This document shows positions 5,966 to 56,126 of a stretch of DNA of 64,000 nucleotides, one piece after another. The translations under genes and the position numbers were made by a program. This stretch comes from Chiloscyllium plagiosum (taxonomy: Eukaryota), in the NCBI RefSeq assembly GCF_004010195.1, contig NC_057719.1:18257438-18321437 (forward strand). Direction: 5' to 3'. The stretch's first letter is position 1; every line of letters begins with the position of its first letter. The notes below the pieces were generated by a model. The model was not told the DNA's origin and ran no database searches. It saw only the letters and a list, made by a program, of their open reading frames with translations.

Positions 5966-6077
5966 ATCTGATATGAAAACTGAAATTGCTGGAGAAACTC
6001 AGCAGGTCTGGCAGCATCTGTGGAGAGAGAGAAAAATAGAGTTAATGCTTTGAGTCCAGTGACTCTTCTTCAGAACA
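5966..6077 (-). mobile_element. PLE-derived short element, family A, with decayed hammerhead motif
   Basis: Minus strand GUU-CUGAAGA-A-GAGUC-ACUG-GACUC-AAAG-CAUU-AAC; body homologous to the copies at 11267, 47408, 47898 and 56032. Confidence 0.75.
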
Positions 6078-7002
6078 GTTCTGCCATGACTCAAGATGGA
6101 AAAATCCCACCCTTGTGGGTGATGTGTAAATTTGTTGCATGGACCTACAGATTCTGATTTAGTAAGCAAGCATCACATCAGCCTGTGAGTTTTTAATGTC
6201 ACAGTGCCACACATTCAGTACTTATAGAGGATAGATGTGTAAGCTGGATGGGCAGGAGGACCTTTTTCTATGCTATAGGTCTTTATGAATGTGACACTTT
6301 TCTCAAGGATGATCAGCCTCAGCAGCACTATCTCTGCTAAAGCTATTAATTTACACTTTGTGTCCCATACTTCAACTATTGAATCTTCTTCGCTATTTTA
6401 AATATGGTGTTCTTGCCTTGTCTTGCTATATTCAGAGAATACATTGCCTACACCCTTGCATCTCTGTTCATGCATCCTTTTTAAAATTATAACATTTAGT
6501 TTTTGTTGCCTCTTCTCATTTTGTATACCAAAATGAATCATTGTCACACTTTTCTGCTCAACGTTTTATCTACGAATGGTTTCAATCCTGACGTCCTGCA
6601 TTCTGTTACTTTCATTCTCACAGGTTACTGCACTTCAGTTTTCTGTCATTTGACAACTTTGAGTTTACATCCTATATATCCAAAGCTAGGTAAGGGAGAA
6701 CAATATTCCTAGTATTGATTTCTGGGACAATAACTGTATACTTCTTTGTACTTTAAAATGCATCCAGTCACCATACTCTGTTTTCTGTGCCTGAGCCAAT
6801 TTTGTTTCCATGCTGGCACAGCCCACAGATTCCACGCACCAAAGTTTTACGAACAAACCTATTATGTAGTACTTTATGAAATGCCTTTACAAGTCCAATA
6901 TGATTTTTCTGTGTATCCAACTTGAAATGTTAGCTTCTTCACAAGCCCTTTTTGTGCAGTGCTTATCAACGAAGTAGGCTAAATAGTCAGAAATAAGTGT
7001 AT

Positions 7003-7084
7003 AAATTCACACAACACCAGGTTATAGTCCAACAGGTTTATTTGGAAGCACTAACTTTCAGAGCACTACTTCTTCATCAGGTGG
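7003..7084 (-). mobile_element. PLE-derived short element, family B, with decayed hammerhead
   Basis: cacacaacaccaggttatagtccaacagg...cttcatcaggtg, homologous to 14685 and 32531. Confidence 0.75.
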
Positions 7085-7089
7085 ATCAA

Positions 7090-7870
7090 CTTATGGTTGG
7101 AAGCATGTGGGGAGACCAAGACCGCAATTCTAAATTGACTACAGGAGCAGAGAGACCTGAGCATATGTCTACATAAATCAGTAAGGGTGGTAGGAAAGGC
7201 TAGGAGTGCAACTTATCAATGGTACAATATCTTAGACTTTAGTAATGGTAGTATAGAATACAAACAGTAGGAGGTTATGTTCAATCAGGAGAAAGCACTG
7301 AAAATATTTTAAAAACGGTTTCAAACACAAGAAATTTCAGTAGATAGATCTGAGAAGTTATGATTATATTCCTTGGAACAGAGAAGATCAAGGAGGAACT
7401 TGATGGAGATATTCAAAGCCATGAGTGACTGGACAGATTAGACAGAGAAAAATCTCCCATTGGTGAAAGGATGGAGAGCAATAGGGCACAAAATAAAACA
7501 ATTGACAGGAAGGGCAATACTTCAATGAGTGAAAACATTGACATACGAGTTTTGTGATCTGGAATGCACTGAGAATGTGATTCAATCAAAGCATTATAGA
7601 GGGGATTTGATTAATATCTGAGAAGGCAGACTGCACAGTGTTTTGGGAGAAGGCCAGGGCCTTGCACTAGATTCCTGATGAAGGGCATTTCCCCGAAACA
7701 TTGATACTCCTGCTCCTCGGATGCTGCCTGACCTGCTGTTCTTTTCCAGCACTATACTCTCGACTCTGATCTCCAGCATCTGCAGTCCTCACTTTGGACT
7801 ACGTAAGTTACTCCTATGGAAACGCAAAAACTGGCCAAATGACCTCCTTCTGCACTGCATCCATTCTGAG
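7090..7870 (+). mobile_element. Old CR1 3' fragment, interrupted by a PLE-derived element
   Basis: Degenerate CR1 3' motifs (ccttggaacagagaag...ggaacttgatggagatattcaaa; ctggccaaatgacctccttctgcactg). Confidence 0.7.
7671..7795 (+). mobile_element. PLE-derived short element, family C, with hammerhead motif
   Basis: AUUC-CUGAUGA-A-GGG-CAUUUC-CCC-GAAA-CAUU-GA, followed by the family C body ctcctcggatgctgcctgacctgctg. Confidence 0.8.
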
Positions 7871-8896
7871 AACACAAGCGTAACTACCATTTAATCAGAA
7901 GGCGATGTGGGCTAAAATCACAATAATAGATTATTGATCCTGAATCCCATTATCTGATTTAATGCCTATCAATTTTTTGGGCTGGGACGCTTTTAAAAAG
8001 GGACGCGCTTAAAAACACTGACTTGAAGTGGCCAAAAGCATCACCTAACCCATAGGTTGACCAAATTTCCTGAAGGTAATATGGACTCAACAAAAGACAG
8101 CCTAATCCAATTTAATATTTTCCCCAAGGGTCAATGAGACTGGTTAATCAGGTTCCTATGGAAAATGTGAGCTGGCTATCATCCCCTAATAGGTTTACAC
8201 CAATATGAGAATTTTTAAATGTTGGAGATGGGGCCTTGCCTACAATTGTGAAGCCTCAAAAGTTAACCTTTGTTGACATGGAATGTACAAACAAGCTACC
8301 ATTTCAACTGATGCCATACTGCCAGAACAGAGGAGATAGTCTTCTGGCTATAGAATTGAGGCAGTAAGGAGATCTCTCTTTCTCTCTCTCTCTGTGTCTC
8401 TCGTCTTCTCTCTCTCTGTCTCTCTTACTCTCTTTCAAGAAGAAGAACCTGGTGATAAAATTGAAGAAAAAAATCTGGATACTGTAAATTTAAAACAAAC
8501 TGCAATGTTTACTTCTGACAGTCTATCAAACTGTAATGTCAGGCTAAACTTATACCTTAAAGACATTCAAAGGACCCTAATTGGTATGCTTTTCAAAAAT
8601 CTTTCTTTTGCTTTCGATAATATTCCTTAATACCTCAATACATTGGTGTACATCTGTCTGAGAGTACCCAAAGATCATATGTTTGATGTCATGCCTGTAT
8701 TATTTTGCTCAGGGTTAACAAGAAACAAACCTGTTCTCTAATTAATTCAAGAAAACCTTACAATTAGTTCTTTATTTTGACAGAGGTGAGCCGCATTCAG
8801 CCAAGGTAAGAGTTCAAGTTTACTTTTTAAAAGAAGAAACTTAAACGATTTTCTACTTAGGTTAAGTCTAGAGTAAAACATCCGTTTAATAAGAGT

Positions 8897-9400: not shown

Positions 9401-9427
9401 GTTCAACAGGACCTCCAGAGTCAATTG

Positions 9428-11266: not shown

Positions 11267-11481
11267 AAAAACAAAAGAACTGCCAATGCGAGAATTCAGA
11301 AACAAAATCAGAAATTGCTGGAAAATCTCAGTAGGTCTGGCAGCATCTGTGAAGAGAAATGAAAGTTAACTTTTCAGGTTTGGTGACACTTCCTCAGAAC
11401 TGTTCTGAAATGTTAACTTTGATTTGAGTTCACAGATGTTGCCAGACCTGCTGAGTTTTTTCCAGCAGCCTCTGTTTTTGT
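11267..11481. mobile_element. PLE-derived family A fold-back (inverted-repeat) element
   Basis: Arms cagaaattgctggaaaatctcagtaggtctggcagcatctgtgaa and ttcacagatgttgccagacctgctgagttttttccagcag; 17-bp TSD ttcagaatggtcctgta at 11250-11266 and 11482-11498. Confidence 0.85.
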
Positions 11482-11669
11482 TTCAGAATGGTCCTGTACT
11501 CAGGCCTATATGGTGGGTCCTCTTTCCTATAGACGTGGGTCCTTTTTCACTATAGATATACTCCTTGCCTTTTCCATTCAGGTGATAATTTGATGTTCTA
11601 GACTTCCTGAGCATTTTTAATTAAACTGTGTTTTCATCCCACTGAATTGAATAAAAATCCCAACACTTA

Positions 11670-13049: not shown

Positions 13050-14512
13050 TTTGATTTGATTTGAATTGACACATGCACCTCAGGACAGTGAAATGTTTTT
13101 GTTTTATGTGCAGTACTGGCAATCATACCATACAAAGTGCAAAGGTAATAGAACAGAGCAAGGAGTACAATGTTACGGCTGCAGAGAAGGTGCACAAACA
13201 GCGAGATCAACATTAAGTTTAAAAGTTGAGCAATCCATTTAGAAGTCTTATAACAATGGGGAAGTAGCTGTTCTTGAATCTATTTGAATGTTTATACAAA
13301 CCTTTATATTTTTTGCCCGACAGAAGAGGGTGGAAGAGAGTATAACCAGGGTGGGAAGGATCTTTGATTTTGTTGGTTGCTTTCCTGAGACAGCAGTAAG
13401 TATAGATGGAGTCAATGGATAGAAGATTGGTTTGTGTGATGGACTGGGCTGTGTTCACGATGCTCTGCAGTCTCTTGTGGTCTTGAGAAGAGCGGCTGCT
13501 AAACCACACTGTGATGCATCCAGATAGGATGCTTTCGATGATGCATTTATTAAAAATTGTCCCTGTGGTCAGATCAAATTTCCTTAGCCCTCCTGAGGAA
13601 ATAGAGATGTTGTTGTGCTTTCCTCACCATTGTGCCAACATGGCTAGCCCATGAAGTGATCATCACTTCCAGGAACTCTAAACTCTCCCCGATCTCCATT
13701 TCAGCACCATTGATGCAGCCAGAGCTAGGCCTTCCCCTCTAATTCTTGAAGTCAATAACTAGCTCTTTCATTTTGCTGACATTAATGGTGAGATTGTTTT
13801 CTTTACTCCGCTAAGCACTCAATCTCTTTTCCTTTATTCTGTCTCGTTGTTTGCAATCAGCCCTTCAATGGTGGTGTCATCAGCAAACTTGCAAATGGAG
13901 TTGGGGCAGAATTTGGCCACATACATAGAACATAGAACATAGAAGAATACAGCGCAGTACAGGCCCTTCGGCCCTCGATGTTGCGCTGATCCAAGCCCAC
14001 CTAACCTACACTAGCCCACTATCCTCCATATGCCTATCCAATGCCCGCTTAAATGCCCATAATGAGGGAGAGTCCACCACTGCTACTGGCAGGGCATTCC
14101 ATGAACCCACGACTCGCTGAGTAAAGAACCTACCCCTAACATCTGTCCCATACCTACNNNNNNNNNNNNNNNNNNNNNNNNNNNNNNNNNNNNNNNNNNN
14201 NNNNNNNNNNNNNNNNNNNNNNNNNNNNNNNNNNNNNNNNNNNNNNNNNNNNNNNNNNNNNNNNNNNNNNNNNNNNNNNNNNNNNNNNNNNNNNNNAATA
14301 AATGCCAGTACGCCATATGCCTTCTTCACCACACTATTTACCTGGGTGGCAACTTTCAAAGATCTGTGTACATGGACACCAAGATCCCTCTGCTCATCCA
14401 CACTACCAAGTATCCGACCATTAGCCCAGTACCCCATACCTGTGAGTGTATGAGGAGTATAGTCAGGGACTGAGTCCACAGAATTGTGGGACACTGGTGT
14501 TGAAGAGGATAA
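13050..14512 (-). mobile_element. Rex1/Babar-clade LINE 3' part, interrupted by a CR1
   Basis: ORF 13219..13509 (QDHKRLQSIVNTAQSIT...IKDPSHPGYTLFHPLLSGKKY...RFKNSYFPIVIRLLN); KFADDTT at ~13870-13890; VPQFCGLSP*LYSSYTH at ~14440-14500; (tcaaa)n tail at ~13050. Confidence 0.85.
13921..14434 (-). mobile_element. Young CR1 3' fragment nested in Rex1; contains an N gap
   Basis: (catagaa)n tail; ILGSVDEQRDLGVHVHRSLKVATQV; GRFFTQRVVGSWNALP. Confidence 0.92.
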
Positions 14513-14544
14513 GGGAGACATTTAACTGAAGAAAATATACTAGG

Positions 14545-14675
14545 TAAAAATAAGGAATTGTAGATGCTGGAAACCAGATTCTAGATTAGAGTGGTGCTGG
14601 AAAAGCACAGCAGTTCAGGCAGCATCTGAAGAGCAGGAAAATTGACCTTTTGGGCAAAAGCCCTTTATTCCAGGA
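14545..14675 (-). mobile_element. PLE-derived family C element with decayed hammerhead
   Basis: gtggtgctggaaaagcacagcagttcaggcagcatc...ttgggcaaaagccctt; homologous to 42960. Confidence 0.75.
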
Positions 14676-14684: not shown

Positions 14685-14850
14685 ATGATTTGAAGGTGCC
14701 GGTGTTGGGCTGGGGTGTACCAAGTTAAAAAAAGGTGACATCAGGTTATAGTCCAACAGGTTTATTTGGAAGCACTAGCTTTCGGAGTGCTGTTCCTTCA
14801 TCAGGTGGTTGTGACACAGAATAAGGTCGCAAGACACAGAATTTATAGCA
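14685..14850 (-). mobile_element. PLE-derived family B element
   Basis: Homologous to 32531-32757; carries the intact-core hammerhead at 14773-14807. Confidence 0.8.
14773..14807 (-). ncRNA. Minimal type-I hammerhead ribozyme motif (family B)
   Basis: CAC-CUGAUGA-A-GGA-ACAGCAC-UCC-GAAA-GCUA-GUG: stem I CAC/GUG, stem II GGA/UCC, palindromic AGCU, CUA triplet. Confidence 0.75.
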
Positions 14851-15692
14851 AAAGTAATAGAGTGTAGCTGGGGTTGTTGCTCTTCAAGAAGATAAGGTTG
14901 AAAGAAGATTTAATAAATAACTGTGATGGGTCTAAATGCAGAGAGGACTGTTTGCATTGACAGAAGGGTCGGGAAGAAAAAGAAACTGTTGAGAGGTGAG
15001 TAGTGAAAGAAATAATGGTGTCATGAGGAAGCATCTTTCTTCAACACCTTTACTTGAGGCTGAGGGAGGCAGGGCTTTCAAAATGGAGGAAGTAATAGTA
15101 TGAAAAAGTGTGGGGAAGAGGAAATAGCTGAATTGTTCCTGTAGTGGGCCAGCAAGGACACAAGAGGACAATAGTCTCCTTCAGGACATAATCATTCTTT
15201 TAATTGTAGTAAAATTTTAAACTAGGTTGCTGTGCAGAAAGAAGAAAGCCTGATTTGTGATGAAGGTAGTTTTCAGAAAGTAGATCCTTGTGCCTTTTGA
15301 TTAGTAAGCCAGATGAAGAATTAGAACAAATCATTTTATAGCTTTAAGCTTCGGTCAATTCTTTTCTTCTTTTTTAATTGGCAGATTGGAATTGACGCTA
15401 AGCAGAAGGCAGGGTTAGAATTTCCATTTCATTCATTTTCTCTCATAAACACTTGCATTTTTTAAAAGTCTCTGCTTTGTTCTCCATATGAGAACATTTA
15501 GTGTTAAGCTCCTGTTGAGTGCAATGTCAGAAAAAAATTATCGCAAAACTGCCTCAATGTAAATCCCATAAATGTAATATGCACTGTGAAAATGGAGCTG
15601 ATAAATAGATTCTATGTAACTTTCTAAACTTTAATGTGATGGGAACAGGTTAAAAAAGCAATGAATCTGTTTTGTAAAATGTAGAATGGATA

Positions 15693-16112
15693 TCAGAAAT
15701 AAAAACAGAAAATGCTGCAGGTATTCAGGTCTGTGCAGAGAGAAACAGACCTCGTGTTACATATCATCAAACTACCATCAAAACTGGAAAAAAAGGTTGG
15801 TGGTGTAAGAGATCTACTGAGACAGGGAAAGGAGGAGTGGACAGCACAGAACAAAAGAGAAGGTCTGTAATAGGCTGAAAAATAGGAGCTATTCAAAAGA
15901 GGTGAGGTGGTAAAGTGTGCTATACCATGAAGAATCAAAAACTGGATCCTGTGAAGATGTAAATGGGAACTAGCTGAATCATTATCAAAAGTAGATGTGC
16001 AGAAAGTAATGGAGAGAGAAAAAATGCTCTGAAATTGTTGAACACTGTTTTAAAGCTGATTTGCTCTAAAAACATAATTCAAAAATGAGGGGCTGTTACT
16101 TGAGCTTACAAT
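15693..16112 (-). mobile_element. Longer Penelope-like 3' fragment: decayed ORF C-terminus plus family A-like terminus
   Basis: Minus translation of 16110-16021 gives CKLK*QPLIFEL...(frameshift)TVFNNFR, resembling the PLE GIY-YIG-domain tail RKLEEQHLIFRLG...NIEFNNFR. The left end resembles family A (cagaaataaaaacagaaaatgctg). Confidence 0.6.
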
Positions 16113-16182: not shown

Positions 16183-16385
16183 ACTCCAGAGATGGAAATG
16201 TGTTGCTGGAAAAGCGCAGCAGGTCAGGCAGCATCTAGGGAACAGGAGAATCGACGTTTCGGGCATTAGCCCTTCTTGAGGCAAACGTGGGTACTGCAGT
16301 GGGTCCTACTCCTGATGAAGGGCTCCTGCCCAAAATGTCCATTTTACTGCTCCTCGGATGCTGCCTGACTTGCTGTGCTTTTCCA
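16183..16385. mobile_element. PLE-derived family C fold-back element with two decayed hammerheads
   Basis: Arms ~16204-16281 and ~16311-16388 are reverse complements; near-TSD gcattattg (16174-16182) / gcattactg (16386-16394). Confidence 0.8.
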
Positions 16386-17705
16386 GCATTACTGTAATCT
16401 GAGTTCAATCACTTCTAATTTTGATCCAAGCTCTTTGCTCAAGTTGCAACTGATGCAATATTGCAATTGGTATGTCAAGTACCCATGACACTGGGTCTGC
16501 AAAGTTATTGCAATTTTTGACACATTAATTAAGGAGAGACGTAGGAAAAATGGATGTGGTCTTTCTGCACTGTAACTTGAATTGGAATCCATATGATTCT
16601 GGAAAAAGTGTTATAAAGCCATAAAATATCATTTTAACTGGAAAAAAGATATTCATTATTCCAATTTGTGAGTGTAGACAATATAGATCTTTGTTCAATT
16701 TGTTTAAACACTTTCATACCCATCCTCACTTGCAAACATTCCAAGCAACAACCTGACATAGTGTAATAATAGTGTCATTAATAGTTTAAACTAAATCCTT
16801 TAGCTCGCAATAGGTTAATGTCTCAAAACTGGCTAATAAATGGGTATGAAACAATGAAAAAGATACTGCTTGGAGGCAAAATATGGGGGATGATGAAACA
16901 TAAAGGCATATAAAGGAGACAATCTACTTGCTAAAGGCTGACCAAGCATTCTGACTGATAGAGTCCTCTTAATTGCTAATAATTCTACCTTCCTTCATTA
17001 TATCTTACACCTTTGCCCTCTGATTCAATTACCAGTTACTGAGAAGTAAGAGAAAGACAATCGGTTTGCCACAATCTGACCATTGTTTAGTCTAGAGCTG
17101 TCACATGACCGAACATATCTGTATGACCATTTTACTGACCTGAACTCTTTTGCTAAATTGACTTCATCTGTTTATTCTTGGGACTATTCAACAAAGTGAC
17201 CTTGAAAATAATGTGCAGCCTTGCTAGTTAGTCTCTCATGTTATAAAGCGTACATTTCAAACTTTAAAGGGCTCTGCTTTTCTTTCCCACCAACAGGATA
17301 ACTGCTGTTTTTAGAAGAACGAGAAGCAATGGCAATTTGACCTGCTACTGTTTCAGAAGAAGTAGGGCTAAACCAGGAAGGAAACTGATTCTGAGGGAAT
17401 TTGGTACCCTCAATGGGAGAAAGACCCCACCCTGTTCAAGCAACAGCAGAACTGAGTACTTGGCTCAGGTAGGACTGTAAGCACCTCTAAATAGAACACC
17501 GATAATGACCAGACCAGGACTTTTGGCTAAAGATTAATTGCTTTTCTGAGATATTGGGCAGGTTCATTTTGAAGGCCAGGGAAGGCAGAAAGAAAGGTGA
17601 TGGTGGAGTGGGGTTGGGGGGAGGGGTCAATAATCAAAGGCTGGGCTGGGTGTGGTGGGAGACATGAGGTCCTTTCATGGTTTTGAGGAGAAAAGGTCCT
17701 TCTGA

Positions 17706-17878
17706 CTCTCTCACACACACATGCACACACTTACACATATACACTCACAAGAACACACACACACATTCACACAGATGCACACATGTGCACACGCATGCGT
17801 AAACATTAATGCATACATGCATGTGAATACACACACTCACACACACATGCATTCACAAAAACGTGCACACACTCATAC
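17706..17878. repeat. Degenerate (CA)n microsatellite
   Basis: Directly visible. Confidence 0.9.
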
Positions 17879-22159: not shown

Positions 22160-22250
22160 AGGTTAAAATCGGCTCATGCCCGAAACGTCGATTCTCCTGC
22201 TCCTTGGATGCTGCCTGACCTACTGCCTTTTTCTGCAACACATTTTCAGC
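22160..22250 (+). mobile_element. Truncated PLE-derived family C element inserted in a CR1 tail
   Basis: ggctcatgccc-gaaa-cgtc-gattc (3' half of the hammerhead) plus body; 14-bp duplication tatagaatcataga at 22146-22159 and 22251-22264. Confidence 0.8.
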
Positions 22251-25543: not shown

Positions 25544-25815
25544 ATCATAGAATCCCTACAGTGTGGAAGCAGGCCATTTGGCCCATCAAGTCTACACCAA
25601 CCCTCTGAACAGCATCCCTGTAACCCTGCATTTTCTATGGCCAATCCACCTAACCTGCACATCTTTGGACTGTGAGAGGAAACTAGAGCACCTGAGGAAA
25701 CCCACGCAGACATGGAGAGAATGTGCAAACTCCACAAAGATTATCAGCCGTGGCTGGAATTGAACCTGGGTCCCTAATGCTGTGAGGCAGTAGTGCTAAC
25801 CACTGAGCCACCGTG
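25544..25815 (-). mobile_element. HE1-type V-SINE
   Basis: Homologous to 59207-59528; A-box-like TGGCTCAGTGG, B-box GGTTCAATTCC, V-domain gtttgcacattctc. Confidence 0.9.
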
Positions 25816-25907
25816 CTAACCCTTTATAGGTTCAACTCGTAAACCTACATATTTCTCCTTTAGGAAGGTCATAGTCCATGCCAATATATCTACTATATTT
25901 TTCCATT

Positions 25908-29934: not shown

Positions 29935-30138
29935 AGTAAGAATCTGAGGAAGGAGGCCATTCAGCCCATCAAATCCACATTAATCCTCCCAATACCACAG
30001 CTAATCCACCTAACATACTCATCTTTGGACAAAAGCCAGTGCAAACTCCACACAGGCAGTTACTAGAGGTTGGAATTGAACCCAGATCCCCAGTACAGCG
30101 AGACAGTAGTGCTAACCACTGTGACACCATGTCTCCCA
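29935..30138 (-). mobile_element. Degenerate, internally deleted HE1-type SINE
   Basis: tgcaaactccacacaggcag...ggaattgaacccagatccc...gtgctaaccactgtgacaccatg. Confidence 0.8.
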
Positions 30139-35555: not shown

Positions 35556-35777
35556 GGATGTAGGTTTGCTCAGTGAGCTGGAAGGTTCATCTTCAGGCGT
35601 TTCGTCGCCATTTTAGGTAACATCATCAGTGAGAGCCTCAGGAGCTTCATCCAGGGGCTCACTAAAGATGTCACCTAGTATGGTAACGAAACGTCAGAAA
35701 ATGAACCTTCCAGCTTTGCGAGCAAACTTACATCCAGAACCTGAACCTGAGCTACAAATCTTCTCAAAACTCGTGAT
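35556..35777. mobile_element. PLE-derived family D fold-back element with a hammerhead in each arm
   Basis: 79-bp arms at 35555-35633 and 35658-35736, 24-bp spacer, unpaired tail; degenerate TSD taatccttctat/tagtctttctat. Confidence 0.85.
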
Positions 35778-38439: not shown

Positions 38440-39395
38440 CCCCAGTAAGATTTTGAGTGACTTTGGGAGAATATGGAAGGTTTATTAGATTAGGCTGATA
38501 TTTACTGGATGAAATTCAGTGTAATAAAAAGTGAGTCGATATATTGTGGGAGTAAGAAGATGGAGACTATTGAGAGCAAATTTTGCAATTCCTTCATGTC
38601 CTTCTATGCAGCCGGTTTGTATCAGAAAAATGTTAAATAAATCAGATCTACATAAGATCAAGTTACATAAATTCTGACAATTGTTAATGTAATAAATTAA
38701 GTAACTAACTTGTAATTATTTATTGCAATAAGTGTATTTACAATGTAATAACTTTTGAATATTTAGTAATTTATTTGCAATAAATTCAGAATTTTATTAT
38801 TGACAAATAAATAAATAGTTGTATTTATTGAATTTAAATCAATAAAGCAACAAAAGTCCATGGAAGTTTTACAAATTAAAGAAGCAATGAGGTTCTGATA
38901 AATTTGTTGGAGACAAGACTTATGCCACAGTTGGAGTGTTTGTGTGTTGTTTTGGGTGCTCCATTTTGAAAAGATTAATAAAGCTATGGAGGAAATACAA
39001 TGCAGATTCACCAGGATGTAGCCAGGGATGAGGCAATGATAAGTGAAGAACATGGACGGTTTCACAAGAGAATAAGGAAGTATAATTTCCTTTGGTGAAG
39101 AGTCAATAGTGACAGAGTGTGAATTTTAAGATGTCAGTAAGGTATTCAGCAGAAGATCTTAGGACAAAAAAATGTTAGAGCATGTAACACTATGCCACAG
39201 TAAGTATTTGAACTAGAGACCATTGCTGAATTGGAGACCTGTAAAAGAAAGAATTTCTGTACACTGGAATCAGCAAATGATACAAGGTAACTGTGAGAAG
39301 ACAGGGTAGTGAGGTAAGATTTGGACTGCTCTAACAGAAAGTGCACACAGGTACAATGGGATGAAGGACTTATTTCATCACTCCAAGCTCTGCGC
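38440..39395 (+). mobile_element. Very degenerate CR1 3' region with an AT-rich interruption
   Basis: ggatgaaattcagtgtaataaaaagtgag; atacaatgcagattcaccaggatgtagccagggatgagg. Confidence 0.6.
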
Positions 39396-40800: not shown

Positions 40801-42959
40801 GATCCTGTGTGGGGAGCAGAAGAAACAGAGCAGGTTGTTAGTAAAGGGAGCAATCCACATTTGCATCAACACAAATGACAATTTAACTTACTCCTCTCCG
40901 TGTGCCATGGAGCACTCTGACAAGACTGTGTGGACAAGACTGACAAGACTCTGGCTGCTTCTGTGTGGAACCTCGTTGTTGCACTTTATTCTGATGAATG
41001 CCAGTGATGCTTCAAAGCAACTGTAGGAGATTGTGAGTACTGACTCCTTGTGCTTCCAGCCCCACAACACCCAAGAAAGGCACCATTGCAAAACAAAAGA
41101 GCATGTTGCAAAATATGTACAATCCAAGATGATAGGAGATCAGTCCTGTGTCTCTGCACAGCCTATGCAACGTTGGTTATCTTCATGGTTTCTGGTTCAT
41201 GGGTGAGACTTTAAAGACCAGCCAAGGTCTTTTCACAAAGCTGACTATCTTCAATCTGCAATAACCAATGATGATGTGCAGCTTGCTTGTGGCCAGGATT
41301 TGCTCCCCATGCAGTTGGACAATGCTTGTAATTCACTTACACCATGATATGATGGCAAAGGACTTCAGCCTGCAGTCTGCAGATACATGTTTGATGTTAT
41401 AATGCCCTTCAAGGGCCTCCTGTTGCTCAGAAATGGAGCCTACATGCTAAAGATGAATACTGACTTGACCTAGTCTAGGTCTGGCCATAGCTATTTTCTA
41501 TTCTTTTTACCCATTTAGGAATTGACAGATTGTGGAATGCAATCTGGATTTGCTCAGCATGGTAAGTTGCAGTTTCAGTCTGCCAATCAAGCCATCCCGT
41601 CCATCCCCAACACTCCCTGAGCCCCATCATTGCACTTTTGTCCTGCCTATCATCGTTGCCCCACAGATGTCCATTGAAGCCATGGTGGTGATGGCCAAAA
41701 CACCCCTCCTGCAGCATCCCACATACCCTCATGGACTACTGGCCCTTCCCACCCCAGCACTCCTTCCTCCCCCATGTGTTGACCTGCCCAGATTCACCCA
41801 TCTTGCCCCCTCTGCATCCCAGGTCGTTGTCTCCAATTCCCAGCCTTGAATTCTCACACTTCCCTATCACAGAAATGTCCCCTCTTGGGCCTTCACCTTT
41901 GCCTCCCCCCATCTCCAACAAACTGGGACAGACAGCCTCGCCCGGTGACTGGTCAGCCCCTTGACCCCATTTTCTGCAGCTCCACAAATTCCTTGAGTCA
42001 TCACACAAGGCCTGCAAGAGTAGCCATCACTCCCTCTCCTGACTGCAGTGAGACAGATCCTTGACTCTGACCTTACATCCTCTCCTAATTTTCGTTTCAC
42101 TTCGCAGATCTTTGAGCTCCACATGAGGCAGCAGCTTCAGAACCAGAAGTCAAGCTGTCCTGTGCTGACTGTCTGAGCCATGCAGCTTAGAGGGAACTTT
42201 GGCCCTGACTGCCCTTAGCAGCCAGATGACCATGCCCAAGCCCCTGCACTGAGAGTCAGATGCCCATGATAGTTGTACTGGGATCCCCAGACTCACAACA
42301 ATACTCTTGACTTGACTGAGGATTCCTTCACTTGGAATTTAAGGAGTGACCACTTTTTGGAAGCATATGCCACGCGTTGGCTGCCGAGAATCCTGGGGCA
42401 TGTTGTCGTTGTGAGATCGAGCACTATGCTGTACAGTAATATGTTCACCCCCTTGACTAATGGCTGCTGGTATGTGTGCATGCTGAACAGCAAGGCAAAG
42501 CAGAAGGACTGTAAACATTTTAAGGTGTGACTGAACAGATAAAGCAGCAGAAAGCAAGACAAGGTAGCGCAGGGGAACTGTGAGCAACAAAGCAGGCACA
42601 AAGCAAGTGAGTGCTAAGAGAGTGTGTGAGCAGACTTGGTCCAATCCTTGAGCTGGGTACTTGTCCCTGCACACCAAGTGTCCTTGTAGCAGCAATGTTG
42701 GATTATAGTGCAGAAGTGTACGATAAGTGAATCCAAACTGTGCCACGCTGATGTGATAGAATTTTACCCGTCCTGTGCAACGTTGTCTGTGGCTGCTAGT
42801 AGAGGGTGCCATGGGATGTTGATACTTTAACAATGATCTTCTGACTTAAATGTAGGATTATCTCCACTGAAGTACAGCTAACACTCAGCAAATATCAGAA
42901 GGAACAGGTCTCCTTACACCACAACTTCATGCACAGTTGGTTTTCTTCGGGATCAGGCA

Positions 42960-43093
42960 AAAGTGAGTACTGCAGATGCTGGAAATCAGAGTCTAGATTA
43001 GAGTGGTGCTGGTAAAGCACAGCAGGTCTGGCAGCATCCGAGAAGTAGGAAAATCAACGTTTCGGACAAAAGTCCGTCATCAGGAATGGAGGC
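42960..43093 (-). mobile_element. PLE-derived family C element
   Basis: Family C body; 8-bp duplication atcaggca at 42952-42959 and 43094-43101. Confidence 0.85.
43052..43087 (-). ncRNA. Minimal type-I hammerhead ribozyme motif (family C), intact core
   Basis: AUUC-CUGAUGA-C-GGAC-UUUU-GUCC-GAAA-CGUU-GAUU. Confidence 0.78.
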
Positions 43094-46000
43094 ATCAGGC
43101 ATACTCCCACTAGTGGGAAGACACCAAGATTCATGGCAACATTGACAGGTAAATATTTTAAAAGATACCTATGATCGCACTTACCTCTATATGTGAATTG
43201 GATCCACTTGAATCACATCTGCATCATGTCTGGTCAGTGTTGGATTGTATTCCAAGGAATTTCAAGCCTCATTTCCAATGCATATCCTTTTTTCTGTAAA
43301 AACATTATCTTTTTAAAGAAATTTTATCAAATTGGCTGAAGGCAATTTTCTGTCACCAAATCTATACTGGGTATGCTTCATTATGTTATCATTCATGTAA
43401 TTCTTAATTCTAGAACTGTAGTACAGAAGATGACTAAAATACTAACTTTTTATCTAATTTACTTTTCCATCTTGTTTTCAAGGTGTTGAATTAACAACCC
43501 TTCAGTCCCATCAGGAATGCTACATCCTGTTTTGGATATGACATCATTTTATAATCTTGGTCTTCATGCAATAATGTGGTTGGTTTAATATAAAGATAGA
43601 ATTTCGCTTATTTTCAAACTGGAAAATAAAAGCCAAGAGATTAGCAAGTCAGTGGCCTGCTCAACCATGAGAGAGAATTGACTGGAAAATTATTCCCAAA
43701 GGTTGGAGTGGGAAAATTTGGTGCATCAACATTAAGATGGTCCAATTTGACTGAATAGTCTGTTTCTATACTTAACATTCAATATGTGTAAACAGAGGTT
43801 GAGCTTTGACATGTGGATCTGTGTTTTGCATGAATTTCTTAGAAATCCAAAAGCAATGGTCAACTCTCATCAGCCAATGTCAAATGCACAGTGGCTTTCA
43901 TAACTTAATATGTAAAAATTTATTTTGTTGCAATAGTGCAGGAAGCCTGCCCTAATCCCAGCATTAACCATCAACAGCTGACCTCCATTTATTGCCCCCA
44001 ACGTAGACCTCCCCAGAGACCAAAGCACAGCTCCATCCACTTGTAGGATTAACAGCTGCATGGGAGACTGGGCATTTGTAGAGCATTGAAGTACTCACTG
44101 TAACTCTCTCCCTTATCTAAGGCTTATTATGTGGAATAAGGTCTGTGGCAACATTGGTTTAACAAGCATGTGCATTTTATCACTGTTAAATAAACTGTGG
44201 CCGCAAACATTCCGACGCCAGTTAAATTATAGGTTTGTTTTAAGATGAATGCCTGTTTCTGTCTTTCCTTTTTTCTTCTAAACATGGCCATAATTTCCAT
44301 TCAGTAAATGAAATCTGTGCGGCCTAGTGTGGGAAAATGATTCAGTCAAGCTAATGTGGCAATTCAGTATGGCAGCTATTATCACTTTTGCTTGAAGGCA
44401 AGTTCTAATTCCTCTAGCCACTAACCACAGCTATTTTGAAGGTTTTGTATGCCCTACTTATTCATATATGCACATTTAACTGTTGTGGTTGTGACAGTTT
44501 GTGTATTGGGTACTCTTAGTAAAAATAAAGTCCTGCATAATCTGTCAGAAAAGATTTTGTAATCGTTTGACCATCCTGGAGGTTAACTCTTCATGTTGCT
44601 GGATTAGAGTGCTTTAGAACACAACATAAAATGGCTGCTGTTAGGCCTAACCTTAACATCTATTCCATTACATAACCTTCCCTTGATTTAAGGCCTCAGG
44701 TGGGCTGATGATGTTTATTTGATTTTAGGTTTGGAGACGGTACTGAAAGATTTATGGAGAAGTCCAGGCTTGGCAATAGATTAGGGACAGGTTGCTGGGA
44801 GTAAAATACTTCTTATTTGGTTAGGGAATACTGCACCAATTTAAACTAATATGAAGAGTGACTCTACAAATATACATATTGATCCAAAGTGAAAGGATGC
44901 TTTTGACACCTCTAGCTTACATTCAAGATCTCATTATCACATGGTGCTAATGACCTTTGCTTTTCTCCTCTTCCGTAAACTCTCCCTTTGTAGCTTAAAC
45001 CTGGAAATTATATTGTGGGATATTATCATACAAACACTTAATGTGTTAATCAACTTCCTTTGTCCACATGTTTAACGGATGGTTTAAGCCATTTAAACGT
45101 GTTAATGCCTCATTAAAATAACAGATAGGGGAATTTGATGCAGAAGCATTCAGAGCTCCTCTGATAATATTGCACAACATCCTTAAGTCATAAAATGATT
45201 CTTGACGCTTTTCTTTGGCGTGCCTCCAATCTTTCAGTGTCCTTCTAATATTCCTGAAATTAGCCACAACTGATTAAATGTGGTCAGTGTGCAAGGTTTC
45301 ACCAACTCCATAGATTTCTGTGCTCTTGGATCAACCAATATTTTCACACTGTCTGTTTGTGCAATGTGATTGTGAATTATTCCAAGGTCCAGAACTATGT
45401 GCTGAGGGATGCACCAAATCTTGGGTTTAGATGCTGCCAAGGGACAGTAGGGAAAGACCACTGCCTGAGGTCCTCCTACTAAGTTGAATGGGGGTCCATT
45501 CAATTATCAGGCCCTCCCAGTGCCTTGATTACATCTAAATATCGTCTTGTTCAAGTAAGAGATGTCTTTGATTTGTTTGAATAGAATCAACCTCCAATAT
45601 TTGTGTGTATCCTTGGTATGTTACTATACAGAATTGAACTGCGTTTGTGACTATAATATAAAACATACACACACACAAATATGTATATAGTATATTTTTA
45701 TTTCAAACATATACTATATATAGTATATGTTATTTACTAAAGAAATGGCACCACAAGGATATTGAACACTATGACTGTTACAAGTCTAATAAATCTGCCT
45801 GATAATATCCTGGTAAAGTAAGTATCTCTAAAATAAAAATGTACATACAGTGTGATTTAAGGCCATTCATTTTGTCTATCTTTTCCCATTATTGCCACTT
45901 GCCTACGTTCCCTTTGATGCTTACTAATTTGAATTATTTATGTCTTAATTATTACATTAGTTTCTATGAAACTTTTCATTATTTGTTTTTGATACTTTGA

Positions 46001-47407
46001 ATCAATCTGTTTGGATGTGTTATACCACACCTCTGGATAAGTTGGGTCTTGACCTCAGTCCATTCTGGCCCAGAGATAGAGTTACTAATTTAACCAATCT
46101 GTTATGACACATTTCTGCAACTATCATATGCTGAGGTGGGGCTCAAACCTGAACCTTCTGGCTTAGAGGTAGGGACAATATCAATGCTCAGGACCTTCTC
46201 TTATTGTCTGTATTATGTTTAATTAATAGTCATCATTCCACTTACATCATTCCTACCATGCTGCCTTTGCTTCCCATCCTCGGTCCCACATGATTCAGCA
46301 TCTATTCCATTTTGAGACTGAACATTGGAATCTGATCATTTTATTGGGTGACCAACTCAAATGGTAAAGTACTTTAAGTGTTCACTTTTGAAGGAACGAG
46401 TGCTCAATGAAATAACTTATCATTGCAGTAAATCTGCACTGATTTAAAATAAGGTCGTCTTGAACATATCCCAGTCTGCAATTAGCCTTTTTTGATGAAT
46501 TCACACTCGAGTACTTTAACTGAATACTCAACATATACTCAGCATATTAAAAGTGTAACAACAAGGAAATAACATATAATGTGTTGTACTGATCCTATCT
46601 ATTATGTAGTTTTTCTGTCATACCCACAATGATCCTTGTGTGTCTCAACTTGAAGCCAAGATATCGAGCTGCTAAGGATATATTGCCATTTGGTGTTTTG
46701 GTGCTGATGTGACAAAAGTTCCAATGGTTTTTACAACAGAATTTACTGCTGTTGAAATTAAATTGGATTAATGCATATGCTTGCGGTTCTTTGTGGGATT
46801 TTCAGCTGGGACCCAAGTATATCAAACCTTAATGAGATTTAAGGAGCGAACTCTGTTAAACTACAACAGAAGAATGGTCAAGTGTCTTAAAGGAATCATT
46901 TTTGAAAACTGCAAAATTCATCAGGCAGGTGGCTCTTTTGCCACCAACTACTTTTTAAAATAGAAAGTGCCTTATTGGTACAGTATATCAGTCTCACAAG
47001 TCATTTCTGGGTACAATGGCTCTGCACACAACACATGATGAAAAATGTTGCAAGGTTGAAGTGCAATTGGTGGGAGTGAGGATTCAAAGAGCTTTCCAGA
47101 AATAGGTAGTGCATTGTAAAACACATTGTAATGATATTATTCTATCATGAAGCCATGCTTTGCATATTCCTTAATATTTTTGCTCCAATTACTCCAAACA
47201 CTTAGCAATGTATGAGTGAAGACAATTTCATCATCAGTAAAAAGGAACATTTTTATATTTACTAATTTTGTGAAAGTTTTGCAATATTCATTAAGGACAA
47301 ACACCCTGTTGCCGTCATTGACTCAAAATTCCATGAAACTCTATGAGGCCGATATCCCGGCTGGATGAACTGACCAGATTTGGCAGTGCCCTGTTAAACT
47401 TTGTGAA

Positions 47408-47629
47408 AACCGAAAGAAGTGCAGAAGCTGTAAATCAGAAACAAAAACAGAACTTGCCAGAAAAGCTCAGCAGGCCTGGCAGCATCTGTGCAGAGAAATC
47501 AGAGTTGATGTTTCAGATCTGAATGACCCTTCTTCACAGCTGCCAGCTTTGAGGAAGGGTCACCTGACCCAAAACATTTACAGATGCTGCCAGAGCTACA
47601 GAGATTTTCCAGCACCCTGTGTTTTTGCA
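47408..47629. mobile_element. PLE-derived family A fold-back element
   Basis: Inverted arms; 15-bp TSD gttaaactttgtgaa (47393-47407, 47630-47644). Confidence 0.85.
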
Positions 47630-47648
47630 GTTAAACTTTGTGAAGTTA

Positions 47649-47804
47649 AAAAATCACACAATACCAGGTTATAATCCAACAAGTTTATTTGGAATCACTA
47701 GCTTTCAAAGCACTGCTTCTTCATCAGGTGGCTGGTATAACCTGGTATTGTGTGATTTTTCACTTTGTCCGCCCCAATCCAACACTGGCACCTCCACATC
47801 AATG
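47649..47804. mobile_element. PLE-derived family B fold-back element
   Basis: Arms aaaaatcacacaataccaggttata and tataacctggtattgtgtgattttt; 13-bp TSD ctttgtgaagtta (47636-47648, 47805-47817). Confidence 0.85.
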
Positions 47805-47897: not shown

Positions 47898-48108
47898 ATA
47901 ATAAAATAAAATAAAGAACTGCAGATGCTGAAGATCTGAAACAAAATCAGAAATTGCTGGAGAAACTCTGCAAGTGTGGCAGCATCTGTGGAGAGAGAAA
48001 GCAGAGTTAACGTTCTGAAGAAGGTCAATGGATTGAAACACAAACTCTGCTTTCTCTCTACAGATGTTGCCAGACCTGCTGAGTTTCTCCAGCAATTTTT
48101 GATTTTGT
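47898..48108. mobile_element. PLE-derived family A fold-back element
   Basis: Inverted arms; 13-bp TSD ttctcctttttgg (47885-47897, 48109-48121). Confidence 0.88.
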
Positions 48109-48379
48109 TTCTCCTTTTTGGGAGTTCACTGCGATATATTTCAAATACCTAGTTTGTTTCGGAGCAATGGAGAGATGGCATAAATATGAAACAAGTTTAC
48201 CCATGTTGTTTAAAATATCTCCGCAATTATGATTGCCTATTCCAAGCTTTTCCCAGCTCTAGCTTCTAACAGATTCTGTGTGGTTTGTGTTTACTTTGCT
48301 CTGAATCTGCCTTATCAAAATTATCAAAAATCAAACATACTGGCAATGGATCAGTTCCCAAATTCACACCATCAAGCAT

Positions 48380-48665
48380 GAGAATAAAAGCAAAGCACTG
48401 CAAATGCTGGAGGCCAGCATTCCCTCTCATCTTTTTCCCCAGCTGCATAGATCTCTATATATGGCAGCGACTTCCAGACTTGGGGCTGACTGCTGTGCGT
48501 GGTACCTTAGCGCGACTGCACAAATGCGCAGCCGCATAGCTTAGAGAGAAGACTGAAGACTGGCAATAAAAGCAGAAATTGATGGAGAAACTCAGCAAGT
48601 TCTGGTAGAGCCTGTGGAGGATGAAACAGAGTTAATGTTTCAAGACCAATTTAACTTCTTCAGGC
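48380..48665 (-). mobile_element. PLE-derived family A element interrupted by a MITE
   Basis: aaagcactgcaaatgctggagg | insert | aataaaagcagaaattgatggagaaactcagc...cttcttcagg. Confidence 0.65.
48415..48555. mobile_element. hAT-like MITE
   Basis: Imperfect TIRs cagcattccctctca / ttagagagaagactg, resembling CAGTGTTCCCTCTAA; CpG-containing interior. Confidence 0.55.
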
Positions 48666-49239: not shown

Positions 49240-49378
49240 AAGTTTTGAGGAAGGGTAGGTAGACCTGAAAATTTAAAGCTGATTTCTCTCTACAGATGTT
49301 GCCAAACCTGCTGAGAATTTCCAGCAATTTCTGTTTATACTTTAGATTTCCAGCATCTGCCATTTTTTTCGGTTTTTT
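49240..49378 (+). mobile_element. PLE-derived family A element, decayed
   Basis: gttttgaggaagggtaggtagacctgaaa...acagatgttgccaaacctgctgag...ttccagcatctgc. Confidence 0.7.
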
Positions 49379-51765: not shown

Positions 51766-52598
51766 TTTTATGACACCCCATTTACCAATCGGAAGTAAGA
51801 TATTTAAAGCTCTTTGGTCAGGACTATCTTGAAATGTAAAATAGAATTGCATCCATTTTTTGAATAAGATGTCACAAAGCTGGACCTTTTTTTCTAAAAG
51901 CTGATGCCTTCCTCAACTATACTGTGACCTTGGTTTTTCTTCAGAGGGGTTGTAAACATCTCTCGGTGCTGGTTAGACTGGTTTGTTACAGAGATTAAAG
52001 GATATCGAGAAGCCTTTTTCTTTATATGTAAACAGATGAGATTTCAGGCCAAAGTGGTCATGTTTTAGAAGTGACTTGTATATTGAAAGGGGAGTGGTCA
52101 GCTCTCTAGCTGAGCAGTTCAGTTCCATCCAGAACTGGTTAGGAATTCAACGGTGAACTGTATGGAAACTCTCTTACTTTCTGTCCTTGTAACTTCACCT
52201 TGAAAGTATCTGTTCCATTTTTTGCTGTGTTTTAGGTGATTTGCTTATTGGGACTGTTGTGTATGTTTGGAACAGCATAATTAAGTCCAGTTTGGATAGA
52301 TTGAGTTCTGGATTAGTGGTACTGGAAAAGCACACCAGTTCAGGCAGCATCCGAGGAGCAGTAAAATCGAAGTTTCGGGCAGGAATACGTTTCATCAGGA
52401 ATACAGTTCTGTTGGGGTTCTTTATTCTGTTCTTTGTATTTCATTGTGTAATTTTGTGAATAAATGTTTTGTCTGTTTTAAAACCTGATAGTCAACCTGG
52501 CTAGCTCACTTCAGGTAACTTTCTGAAACAAATTGCAAAGTTATGGTCTGGGTTGCCTGCTGAAGAATGTTTTGAGTGGTCTGGCCTAGTTCATAACA
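51766..52598 (+). mobile_element. Probable solo LTR
   Basis: Starts ttttatgac (like TGTTATGA), ends tcataaca (inverted terminal match, ...CA), AATAAA at ~52459; no TSD seen. Confidence 0.45.
52311..52404 (-). mobile_element. PLE-derived family C element nested in the putative LTR
   Basis: Family C body; CUGAUGA and GAAA are retained but stem II is disrupted; agttctg flanks both sides. Confidence 0.75.
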
Positions 52599-53471: not shown

Positions 53472-53680
53472 AGAATAGAATAGAATAGAATAGCAACCCT
53501 ACAGCGTGGAAACAGCCCTTTGGCCCAACAAGTCCACATCGACCCTCTGATAAGTAACCCACCCAGACCCATTCTCCTACTACTTTACATTTTATCCATG
53601 ACTAATGCACCTAACATACACATCCCTGAACACTATGGGCAATTTAGCATGGCCAATTCGCTTCACCTGCATATCTTTGG
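53472..53680 (-). mobile_element. 3' half of an HE1-type SINE with (tagaa)n tail
   Basis: Homologous to 59230-59375. Confidence 0.85.
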
Positions 53681-54865
53681 ATCTAGTTATATGTTATGAT
53701 TCAAATGTTCCAGGTAAGATGAAGTGTGAGATCTTTATACATTGGTGTCATATGCTACGACACTGTGATAATATTATGAATATCTTCTTTAAAGATAAAC
53801 TGACATACTTATTATGAGATAAACTGACATACTACTGTGCGACATAACATAACAAAGGCCTTTAAGCCAAGTGGTGTTTTAGCATGACTGATTATCAGAG
53901 ACAGAAGAGAGGCTTTCTGGTGACAGAATGAGTTATAAGTCAACCAGAAGGAATACATCAGTCTCTCATGCTAACTTTGTGATGTTGCACATTTTATTCT
54001 TCTATCTATTGCAGATGTACAAATCATACAAGAAGGATTTCAAAAACAATAATGTGAATTCCCTAGTTGAAGATAATTGTGAGTATTGGAAGGCTCTATA
54101 AACATGTCTGACCTGTCCAGTCGTGGCTCTGTTCTCTGTACAGAGTAAGTTGGATTACACATCACATCCTAACTTGTGGAGTATTGTGGTCAGCAGTTAA
54201 ATTATGTCTCTTTAAGGTACATCACAACATCCCCCATATTTTTCAACATCAAATATCTATCCTTAAAGGGTCAAAAGCTATTTACATTGTACAAAAAAAA
54301 ATGTATTGCATTTTATTACACAAAGCAATGAATCACTGAACATACCAGAAATTTACTTATGGATGGAATCTTATAGCAAAATGGGATTTGGTGAAATTTG
54401 TGGCAGAAACAATGAAGAGTCTGTTGAGATGAGCAATTCATTGAATCCTTTAGATATGTTTCATCAACTTGTACATATATGTTATGGCACACATCTGGAG
54501 AAGCCAGGCCTCCTGGCTCAAAGGTATAGACAGTACCTTGCAACAGCCCTTTCCATCTGAGCTTTTATGTTTTTCAGAAGCAGTGTGGGAATTTCTTGCT
54601 GGGAAATAGAGAGTTTCCAATTCAGGGGGAATCATTACCTGTTAAACACTTTGTTAGTAGTACAAGTCAGCTTAATAACATGCAGCCGTAGGTCCAAGAA
54701 ACAGCTGTAGTCTGAACAGAGTGATCTTCTGCCTTCCAACAAAGGGTCAGAAATTTGGTGTTTGGCAGGACTAGCCGGAATATCAATGGCACTGTTCAGT
54801 CTCTCAGTTCTGTGGCGCTTGTGTTTTGTAGCTCCTCCTTCCTTCCCAGGTTTTCCATGAGTTCT

Positions 54866-55142
54866 CAAATAAGAACAAAATACTGTGGAAATCCAGCACT
54901 AACATAGAGAATACTGGAGGAACTCATCAGCTCTGAAAGCATCTGTGGAGAAAGAAACAGAGTCAATGTTTCAAGGCCAGTATGACTCTTTTTCAGAACT
55001 GAAAGGTGTTGGAAAACAGGTTCTGTCAAGAACATAAAAAAAGTTCCCAACCTTTTACTGAACCAGAGATATCCCGGGCTCAAAACATTATTTCTATTTC
55101 TTTGCCAGACCTGTTGAGTTTCCCCAGTGTTCTCTGTGTTTA
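54866..55142. mobile_element. Old PLE-derived family A fold-back element
   Basis: Degenerate inverted arms; TSD tttccatgagttct (54852-54865) / tttccacaagttct (55143-55156). Confidence 0.7.
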
Positions 55143-56031
55143 TTTCCACAAGTTCTGCCTACAAAGTTGTTTTTTATCCTTCACTGATAGAGAACTTGCC
55201 CCTTTTCTGTGTCTCTGAAGCATTCTCTTCCGTGTCCCCTTCTTTCAACAAGTTATTTGCATGGAGAGCAGATTACAGGGAAATAGTGAGTGAGAACAGC
55301 TACTGAGAAGTTTAAGTTTGGTTAATGCAGGTCACATGCAGAAAGAACGATCGAGGTGCTTTCCCTTTGCAGGCTGGATATCTCTGCTCTATTAGTCAAG
55401 AGTGTGGTCCTGGAAAAACACAACGATTCAGGCAGTGTCCGAGGAGAAGGAGAATCAATGGTAATCAATGGTAACATTTCAACAGAGATGAGGAGATGAG
55501 GGAAAATTCTGCCCACCCCTCTGGATTTTATGCCACTCCTGCCTTGGGATAGAAAAGCTCTGGTTAATAATGTAAACGCCCCTCATGAGTTTCATAAAAT
55601 CTGAAAAGGACACTATTAGGACATGAGTGCAAAGAGATTCCTGCAGTTTTAATCTCTGAAGACAGATTGTCTTAGATTTCCATTCAATTAAGTGTTCACT
55701 TGACTCAGTGAAAAAGCTGAGGACACTGTCCATGCATTAGACTGTGGTCCGTACTGAAGGCCGAAAGCTCATTTTTTCAAGATTGGCTAAAAATGAACAA
55801 TATTGAAAATTTTGACATGGTGCAGAATCTCATTGCCAGTCTAATATCTCAAAATTCACAATTCTTTCTGCAAAAATGAAATTATCCTCAGAATGAATGC
55901 TGATATTAATACTATCACTAAAGCACTCCAGGCGTCAAGTCATGAATGCAATTAACTGTGTGGCAGCAAGTAAAGAGTAATGAAACAGAGCCTAAACATT
56001 TTCACACTGCCATGGCAAACTCTGTGTTTAC

Positions 56032-56126
56032 TGAAATGAAAACAGAAATTGCTGGAGAAGGTCTGACACCATCATTGGAGAGAAAGTGGAGTTAATGTTT
56101 TGGGTCCAGTGACCCTTCTTCAGAAC
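56032..56126 (-). mobile_element. PLE-derived family A element; hammerhead with G12->A
   Basis: GUU-CUGAAGA-A-GGGUC-ACUG-GACCC-AAAA-CAUU-AAC; perfect stems I and II. Confidence 0.75.

Follow-up and report, generated by a model that had tools for sequence, protein, structure and literature searches.

What kind of element places a hammerhead ribozyme motif again and again into a shark genome, and why do so many of its copies begin at the same base? The question is raised by a stretch of 64,000 nucleotides from Chiloscyllium plagiosum (RefSeq assembly GCF_004010195.1, contig NC_057719.1, positions 18,257,438 to 18,321,437 of the forward strand), which as a whole is called the window here. A previous sequence-only reading had noticed about 20 short elements in four families (A to D) sharing this motif, and had considered them non-autonomous derivatives of Penelope-like elements (PLEs). 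According to the present analysis the elements are very probably insertion products of four coding PLE families, the short units, designated stubs, representing the ends of their pseudo-long terminal repeats (pLTRs). The motif class and the host elements are already known; the new feature is a fixed 5′ edge of the stubs. Neither such an edge nor a minimal hammerhead from a shark was found in the literature searched, Dfam and Repbase entries lying outside that scope.

Positions within the elements are numbered relative to the core base C3 (position 0), and the predicted cut lies before +28 in family C, before +29 in A and B and before +34 in D. Self-comparison of the window and alignment of family models yielded 30 segments that belong to 22 elements (A 10, one of them a mere scrap of 31 bp; B 4; C 7; D 1). 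Number and families agree with the earlier estimate, as does the density of one element per 2.9 kb of non-N sequence (about one per 3 kb had been given). The size range of approximately 80–420 bp has to be lowered to a mapped span of 31–261 bp; its upper value was probably derived from adjacent A and B elements at 47407–47799. A stub consists of the minimal type-I hammerhead followed by a leader of 80–130 nt. Seven of the 22 elements are head-to-head pairs; no head-to-tail hammerhead arrays were found among the 22, and partial tandems are only occasional in the genome loci. Stem II is included in 23 of the 30 segments. As read by eye from the alignments, four of these 23 motif copies are complete in core, palindrome and stems, counting one B copy (14773–14807) that is nearly intact with a 3-bp stem II. 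Intact, decayed and partial motifs, as described before, are indeed all present.

The motif is a minimal type-I hammerhead with the core CUGANGA...GAAA-N-N-U-H. In the 3.56 Gb of genome searched, 17,514 exact matches to the four previously proposed consensus motifs were counted (A 29, B 1,563, C 15,524, D 398), while each reversed control gave 0. A strict descriptor found two matches in the window versus a mean of 0.01 (maximum 1) in 100 dinucleotide shuffles. One unpaired base between A9 and 10.1, as noticed before, is present in all 97 descriptor matches from the loci, as scored by a script that resolves ties toward the reading with one extra base; it is A in families A, B and C and U in D (109/109). 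Likewise, the palindrome 15.1–16.1 that replaces helix III was described correctly, being ACGU in A, C and D and AGCU in B (99/104), with departures that are mostly CpG decay. The 10.1–11.1 pair is G-C or G-U; one D subfamily (loci L163–L212) has a G-U wobble at this usually fixed pair in 60 of 109 copies of a selected sample. All four proposed consensus motifs match genome-wide. Two of them needed correction: the common stem II of D is GUUACC, the proposed GUCACC being a minor form (pair II.3: UA 75, UG 23, CG 4 of 109), and pair 3 of stem I in C is a U-U mismatch in 96 of 126 copies. In an Rfam scan of the window, with E values of up to 10 allowed, none of the hammerhead families was reported; Rfam contains no model that catches these motifs. 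Model folding gave pair probabilities of 0.94–1.0 for stem II, except for B (0.48); in the context of the leader, stem I was supported in D only. This predicted weakness would agree with a requirement for a partner, be it RNA or protein.

At the loci of 102 exact copies the elements stop at almost the same 3′ position, their 5′ extension ranges between −2 and about −950, and many copies are inverted or in partial tandem. The upstream extensions translate into decayed reverse transcriptase (RT) and GIY-YIG endonuclease sequence in families B, C and D and into GIY-YIG only in A. The search for autonomous partners, which the sequence-only reading had recommended, thus led to decayed coding sequence joined to B, C and D and an endonuclease remnant in A. 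A frame of D (P0003, L210:1495–2892) matches Pfam RVT_1 with E 2e-10 and GIY-YIG with E 0.008, the latter below the curated cut-off; B matches RVT_1 (E 8e-5) and C matches GIY-YIG (E 0.007), both below the curated cut-off as well. All RT/GIY-YIG coding copies of B and C are decayed or truncated. A first look with endonuclease peptides gave 95,079 candidates for C, 32,754 for B and 64,979 for D, which are not copy numbers. Among 20 loci with long frames that were retrieved, the only gap-free ones are two D loci (466 and 430 aa). A 5′ pLTR, the hammerhead and an open reading frame (ORF) follow each other in 2 of 30 D loci (L215 and L239, which carry the motif at both ends) and in 3 of 30 B loci (L251, L257, L258). 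Two other candidates for D 5′ pLTRs were dropped, being a chance match (L228) and a C copy (L221). The nearest named proteins to the D and C ORFs are from carpet sharks (90% and 88%, respectively).

Because the long copies run into RT/GIY-YIG coding sequence, the stubs are regarded as pLTR ends of coding PLEs and probably not as separate non-autonomous families. The earlier proposal of non-autonomous derivatives is not upheld in the form given, although a short master element with its own promoter may exist. Furthermore, in the small samples compared, no subfamily markers set edge copies apart from long ones: each of the two main C signatures is found in both classes, with 12 and 8 cases among 43 edge copies and 5 and 5 among 14 long copies. 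The identity of the two classes does not differ either (Mann-Whitney p 0.7–0.9). The claim that the four families share little except the motif holds for B and D, which are unrelated to A and C outside of it, but not for A and C, whose homology extends past it (local score 38 versus a shuffle maximum of 15). Thus, three unrelated leaders exist instead of four. The endonuclease remnant of A is 33–38% identical to that of C, so A and C are related yet distinct families. Families A, B and C have a Cys-rich Zn-finger-like linker between RT and endonuclease, which is missing from D. Assigned by this linker, A, B and C would be Neptune-like and D Poseidon-like, with the proviso that Nematis shares the linker.

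In family D the stop of the preceding ORF copy falls within loop II. The extra U forms the centre of an AUG that is in frame (A9-U-G10.1); cleavage would remove this start codon. For the frame of the D leader, the script supported L239 and not L215, where the model end is unreliable; in the pairwise alignment, indels of +1 and −10 fit the frame. The D motif is triple-coded (L239, window 35556–35773), serving as the end of the upstream ORF, as ribozyme and as start codon. The AUG of the B ORF is located at +121, beyond the motif. Beyond carpet sharks and unnamed records (~55%), the named relatives of P0003 are mostly from tapeworms and flukes, with ~41–53% identity among the matches listed; the best 120 of 282 matches include no named bony fish. 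A transfer of D between host and parasite is possible, and annotation bias could explain the flatworm relatives as well. A 456-codon open frame adjoining a C copy (L194:748–2115) was also seen, which resembles retroviral RNase H and integrase.

The 5′ end of the stubs was analysed in an edge sample of 191 segments from the window and from loci chosen for other families, after removal of hits <45 bits, duplicates and same-family hits; the end counts leave out six C segments that adjoin a gap or the border of a locus. In the window, 17 of 30 segments begin at −9..0. Among the sampled 5′ ends within −60..+40, 44/71 in C, 31/52 in A and 11/21 in B fall at −9..0, with binomial p values of 1e-26, 2e-18 and 1e-6 for this pile-up. 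In 70 C copies, agreement with the upstream sequence of the family is 67% at −4, where stem I begins, and drops to 27% at −5. An anchor method, which is free of alignment-end effects, gave 70% versus 22% in C; by this method 38 of 56 C copies match at −4..−1 only, six extend upstream and 12 do neither. What lies upstream of the edge is an inverted arm or unrelated flank. In A, B and C the earlier reading was thus right to treat the short unit as an entity of its own. No such edge was seen in D, where 30 copies chosen for having an exact motif include not one that starts after −10.

Three public runs were aligned to a long C copy, and in each the 5′-side loose end with most support was exactly −4 (478 contigs, 304 RNA reads and 96 contigs; flanks agree only 0.33–0.5); the runs may be from the same species, so their agreement is not proof of independence. 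The RNA reads show a roughly tenfold step in depth at the edge. A poly(A) single-cell RNA run, a library poorly suited for this purpose, covered both strands about equally and had no pile-up of starts or ends. An alignment artefact caused by diverged upstream sequence was rejected as the source of the edge, since old long copies align up to −371..−444 and the anchor method agrees. Splicing was rejected as well: an AG acceptor-like context exists in A and not in C or B, and shared exon flanks were found in 0/136, 1/190 and 0/15 pairs. Five C 5′ ends at +9, inside stem II and several of them in inverted pairs, perhaps result from strand switching at the stem II hairpin.

The 5′ junctions of the stubs were unique genome-wide in all four cases tested. 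Target duplications of at least 7 nt flank 7 of 38 copies versus 3 of 182 control pairings, five of them being 10–13 bp long, and where duplications are seen they abut the edge. One stub sits in another repeat, the empty site of which reveals a 13-bp target duplication. At four junctions an overlap of 1–2 nt with the target was seen by eye. Elements have two alternative 3′ ends, in D near +75 and +112, and 68 of 81 head-to-head pairs have a tail on just one of their arms, versus 40 expected (p 2e-10). C stubs were also observed inside other PLE copies (L231, L176), one of them with a 12-bp duplication inside D coding sequence.

Judged from their sequence, most dispersed copies are not working ribozymes: G12, the general base, is part of a CpG and has become A in 18/73 copies of C, 17/40 of A and 5/28 of B. 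Outside CpG, mismatch in B is 8.5% in the core and 8.9% downstream, and the dispersed copies decay neutrally after insertion. The stems covary between subfamilies while the core is kept, which agrees with the earlier statement that the stems differ and nevertheless keep pairing. In 38 A copies 17 double-change cells were counted compared to 9.0 ± 2.4 in shuffles (2/500), with lower values in slid controls, relatedness of the copies not being controlled in this comparison; at pair I.3, 71 of 109 D copies have CG and 26 have UA, differing between subfamilies. Few double changes occur in the stems of B and C.

By analogy to PAc, an element of Anolis carolinensis treated below, we propose that the RT-endonuclease binds the leader RNA and nicks the DNA, that reverse transcription would start at one of two internal sites (~+80 or ~+120), and that the cDNA would be copied back through the hammerhead. 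In the Neptune-like families about half of these events would end where stem I begins. There is an even chance that the template RNA itself ends at the edge, either as a nuclease-trimmed end protected by the folded, protein-bound ribozyme or as a transcription start, the two taken together. Between them trimming is favoured because the edge coincides exactly with the structure, a cap-derived G is missing and 1–2 nt overlaps with the target exist. A stop or strand switch of the RT at the edge ranks next and is the less likely explanation. Two such events primed on opposite strands would produce the palindromes. The ribozyme would be under selection just in the source elements, nearly all of the dispersed copies being inert. 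More tentatively, the hammerhead of Neptune-like PLEs might serve mainly as a protein-bound boundary and dimerisation module and not as scissors, giving rise to a cDNA of constant length, comparable to a strong-stop product, which would be inserted with target duplication either alone or as a head-to-head pair. By rough extrapolation such insertions would number on the order of a few hundred thousand in the genome.

A number of observations weigh against this interpretation. In the fetched loci neither a 5′ pLTR for A or C nor an RT region for A was found, six further C loci were all gapped and had no 5′ pLTR joined to the ORF start, and the window held no PLE coding remnant. An intact full-length ORF was not found either; 18 of 20 long-frame loci contained N-gaps. 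Assembly gaps of 0.7–4.8 kb lie inside long and head-to-head PLE copies (L193–L211, L273–L278), and long copies are therefore under-represented. No clear duplication flanks 31 of the 38 copies. The edge sample represents flanks of loci picked for other families (0.6–0.9 Mb) and not a random sample of the genome, and the contrast to D rests on selected copies, as only four unselected D segments were available. Mismatch is lower in the core than in the leader (C 1.4% versus 14.6%, A 7.1% versus 17.7%), contrary to decay without selection; subfamily positions, base composition and alignment bias inflate this conservation, and some selection on dispersed copies may exist. Two findings count specifically against a transcription start at −4: a G at −5 is found in only 15 of 70 C copies, and full-length B copies begin at −122, −297 and −335 (0/3 at −4).

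Other origins of the stubs were weighed against the same data. True non-autonomous families resembling SINEs (short interspersed nuclear elements), where an internal promoter at −4 drives transcription of stubs that are recopied in trans by the PLE protein, would equally account for the fixed edge, the target duplications and the unique junctions. The base at −4 lies in what we take to be an initiator-like context in A and C, which counts for a promoter there. Moreover, Penelope of D. virilis has an internal promoter (PMC2377424), and non-autonomous PLE partners have been described (PMC8557442; bioRxiv 2026.07.22.740005). Such families should comprise short-only subfamilies, yet none was found, the main C signatures occurring in edge and long copies alike (small samples); the equal identity of stubs and long copies, the missing cap G and, as a weak test, the poly(A) single-cell run with no start pile-up also speak against them, and we consider this origin rather unlikely. 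A ratchet by read-through, in which copies within host transcripts are recopied and repeated truncation erodes them to the smallest unit that folds stem I, appears improbable. It would explain why the edge coincides with the structural limit of the ribozyme and why the oldest family (A) is the one credited with the highest edge share, and PLEs can retrotranspose host genes in trans (PMC8557442). Inherited edges should, however, share the parental upstream flank, whereas the tested junctions are unique, the duplications abut the edge where seen, and edge copies are not more diverged.

A further candidate origin is self-cleavage at H17, which would free a 3′ piece that is then reverse-transcribed into stubs. 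Ends within 4 nt of the cut site do exist (C 5/71, A 4/52), and one window fragment starts at +28; nevertheless, 2.7 (C) and 2.1 (A) such ends are expected by chance, and B has 0/21. No excess of ends at the cut site was seen in the DNA copies or in one RNA run, which contained no molecule ending there. For PAc, insertion still takes place with catalytic mutants, and RNA-seq gave no reads that ended at the cut (PMC11167929). Cleavage as the main source of stubs is thus largely refuted and very improbable. Palindromic DNA transposons similar to miniature inverted-repeat transposable elements, with an incidental motif, would fit the seven palindromes among the 22 window elements; the arms are unequal at both ends, though, most copies are single-armed, and the descriptor almost never matches shuffles. 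The link of the upstream extensions to RT and GIY-YIG coding sequence refutes this idea, to which we attach next to no probability.

If the hammerhead indeed serves as such a boundary module, the stubs would be a fossil record of a stage in the PLE cycle that awaits explanation. Cleavage by PLE hammerheads is weak in vitro and could be dispensed with for insertion in the single element reconstituted so far; an edge at stem I instead of at the cut site makes the role of the ribozyme testable: either the Neptune RT stops at −4 or the RNA ends there. As a caution, intact-looking hammerheads in shark introns would usually be passive stubs.

The elements of the window are given with their position, strand and model extent. 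Family A is represented by minus-strand stubs at 5965–6076 (−3..+103, 83% identity, compensated stem II GAGUC/GACUC, G12 lost), 31810–31910 (−2..+96, decayed), 48565–48663 (0..+96, decayed) and 56033–56126 (−3..+98, stems as in the consensus, CpG decay of both G12 and palindrome), by a decayed plus-strand stub at 49241–49375 (−4..+129) and by a minus-strand scrap at 15687–15717 (+77..+107), a weak match (E 1e-4) with no hammerhead. Its head-to-head pairs are located at 11276–11487 (minus arm 11276–11402, −5..+121; plus arm 11407–11487, +22..+101), 47407–47627 (minus 47407–47542, −5..+129; plus 47544–47627, from −5 with an internal deletion), 47915–48117 (minus 47915–48014, +24..+121; plus 48012–48117, −3..+104) and, with a spacer, 54886–55146 (minus 54886–55002, −6..+107; plus 55103–55146, +55..+98). 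Family B comprises a minus-strand stub at 7003–7084 (−4..+77) with intact core and mismatched stem II and two minus-strand copies with tail. The copy at 14688–14865 (−57..+117) includes the nearly intact hammerhead mentioned above (14773–14807, minus strand), in which core, AGCU palindrome and stem I are intact; that at 32535–32750 (−99..+117, 92% identity) includes an intact one at 32621–32655 (minus strand), which passed the strict descriptor. The B head-to-head pair at 47643–47799 (minus 47643–47734, −7..+83; plus 47736–47799, +54..+117) likewise holds an intact hammerhead with a 5-bp stem II that passed the strict descriptor (47696–47730, minus strand).

Family C stubs lie on the plus strand at 7671–7787 (−4..+113, palindrome decayed at CpG) and 22171–22241 (+9..+80, starting inside stem II) and on the minus strand at 14542–14668 (+3..+126, incomplete core) and 52306–52406 (−8..+90, broken stem II). 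A minus-strand C copy with tail at 42955–43094 (−11..+126) contains an intact hammerhead at 43052–43087 (minus strand), with a double change in stem II (GGAC/GUCC) and the family consensus in stem I. Both motifs are broken in the C head-to-head pair at 16193–16393 (minus 16193–16281, −1..+87; plus 16307–16393, −5..+81), and the minus-strand C fragment at 55404–55456 (+28..+80) is a single case of a copy beginning at the predicted cleavage site. The only D (Poseidon-like) element is a head-to-head pair at 35556–35773 with both motifs broken (minus 35556–35633, −4..+73; plus 35644–35773, −17..+111).

Other repeats were observed in the window. A coding fragment of 186 codons resembling long interspersed nuclear elements, at 57014–57571 on the plus strand and repeated at 1319–1863, is presumably CR1-like. 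Another dispersed short repeat with no hammerhead (25547–25816, 29945–30139, 53490–53681, 59232–59530) resembles, as we assume, the shark HE1/V-SINE. Motif-free AT-rich self-inverted stretches lie at 38751–38857, 45010–45180 and 33959–33996. A 158-bp tandem duplication (99%), TG-rich and CA-rich microsatellites and two N-gaps account for 2141–2456, 4690–4965, 17697–17875, 14158–14296 and 57622–58502.

Minimal hammerheads in pLTRs of metazoan PLEs (Cervera and De la Peña 2014, PMC4209133) include fish Xena, Poseidon and Neptune elements, with ~4,000 motifs in coelacanth and ~9,000 in Xenopus. The shark motifs resemble them in being type I and lacking a real helix III, and the published palindrome (15.2–16.2), extra base (9/10.1) and G10.1 pair are all present, in accordance with the class named in the sequence-only reading. 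Several covarying consensus families per genome, mostly single motifs on truncated PLEs and pairs on opposite strands are further similarities. The text and two supplement files of that paper, as searched, contain neither a shark nor a fixed 5′ edge, unlike the present case with its 17,514 exact copies. The Zn-finger-like linker of families A, B and C is found in Neptune and Nematis (Craig et al. 2021, PMC8557442). RT with C-terminal GIY-YIG, heavy 5′ truncation, partial tandems, an inverted 5′ copy, a tail of 30–40 bp at one end and trouble in short-read assemblies are shared with the Neptune and Penelope/Poseidon clades, and a tail on one arm of head-to-head pairs is a known PLE trait (PMC8557442). 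In PAc, the Poseidon element of Anolis (Frangieh et al. 2024, PMC11167929), the ORF runs from the start of stem II, the cut lies 26 nt past the start codon, and two internal RT start sites set the tail; in vitro, cleavage is assisted by the protein and dispensable for insertion. Family D is similar, with its AUG at A9-U-G10.1, a predicted cut 28 nt downstream and the 3′ ends at about +75 and +112 mentioned above, while family B differs by its ORF start at +121. For PAc the 5′ edge is not addressed in the available text. Finally, non-LTR retrozymes (PMC7229834; bioRxiv 10.64898/2026.07.22.740005), reported in one chondrichthyan genome, also have a type I hammerhead and are PLE-related; they form head-to-tail arrays and circular RNA, whereas the shark elements are dispersed single or head-to-head insertions.

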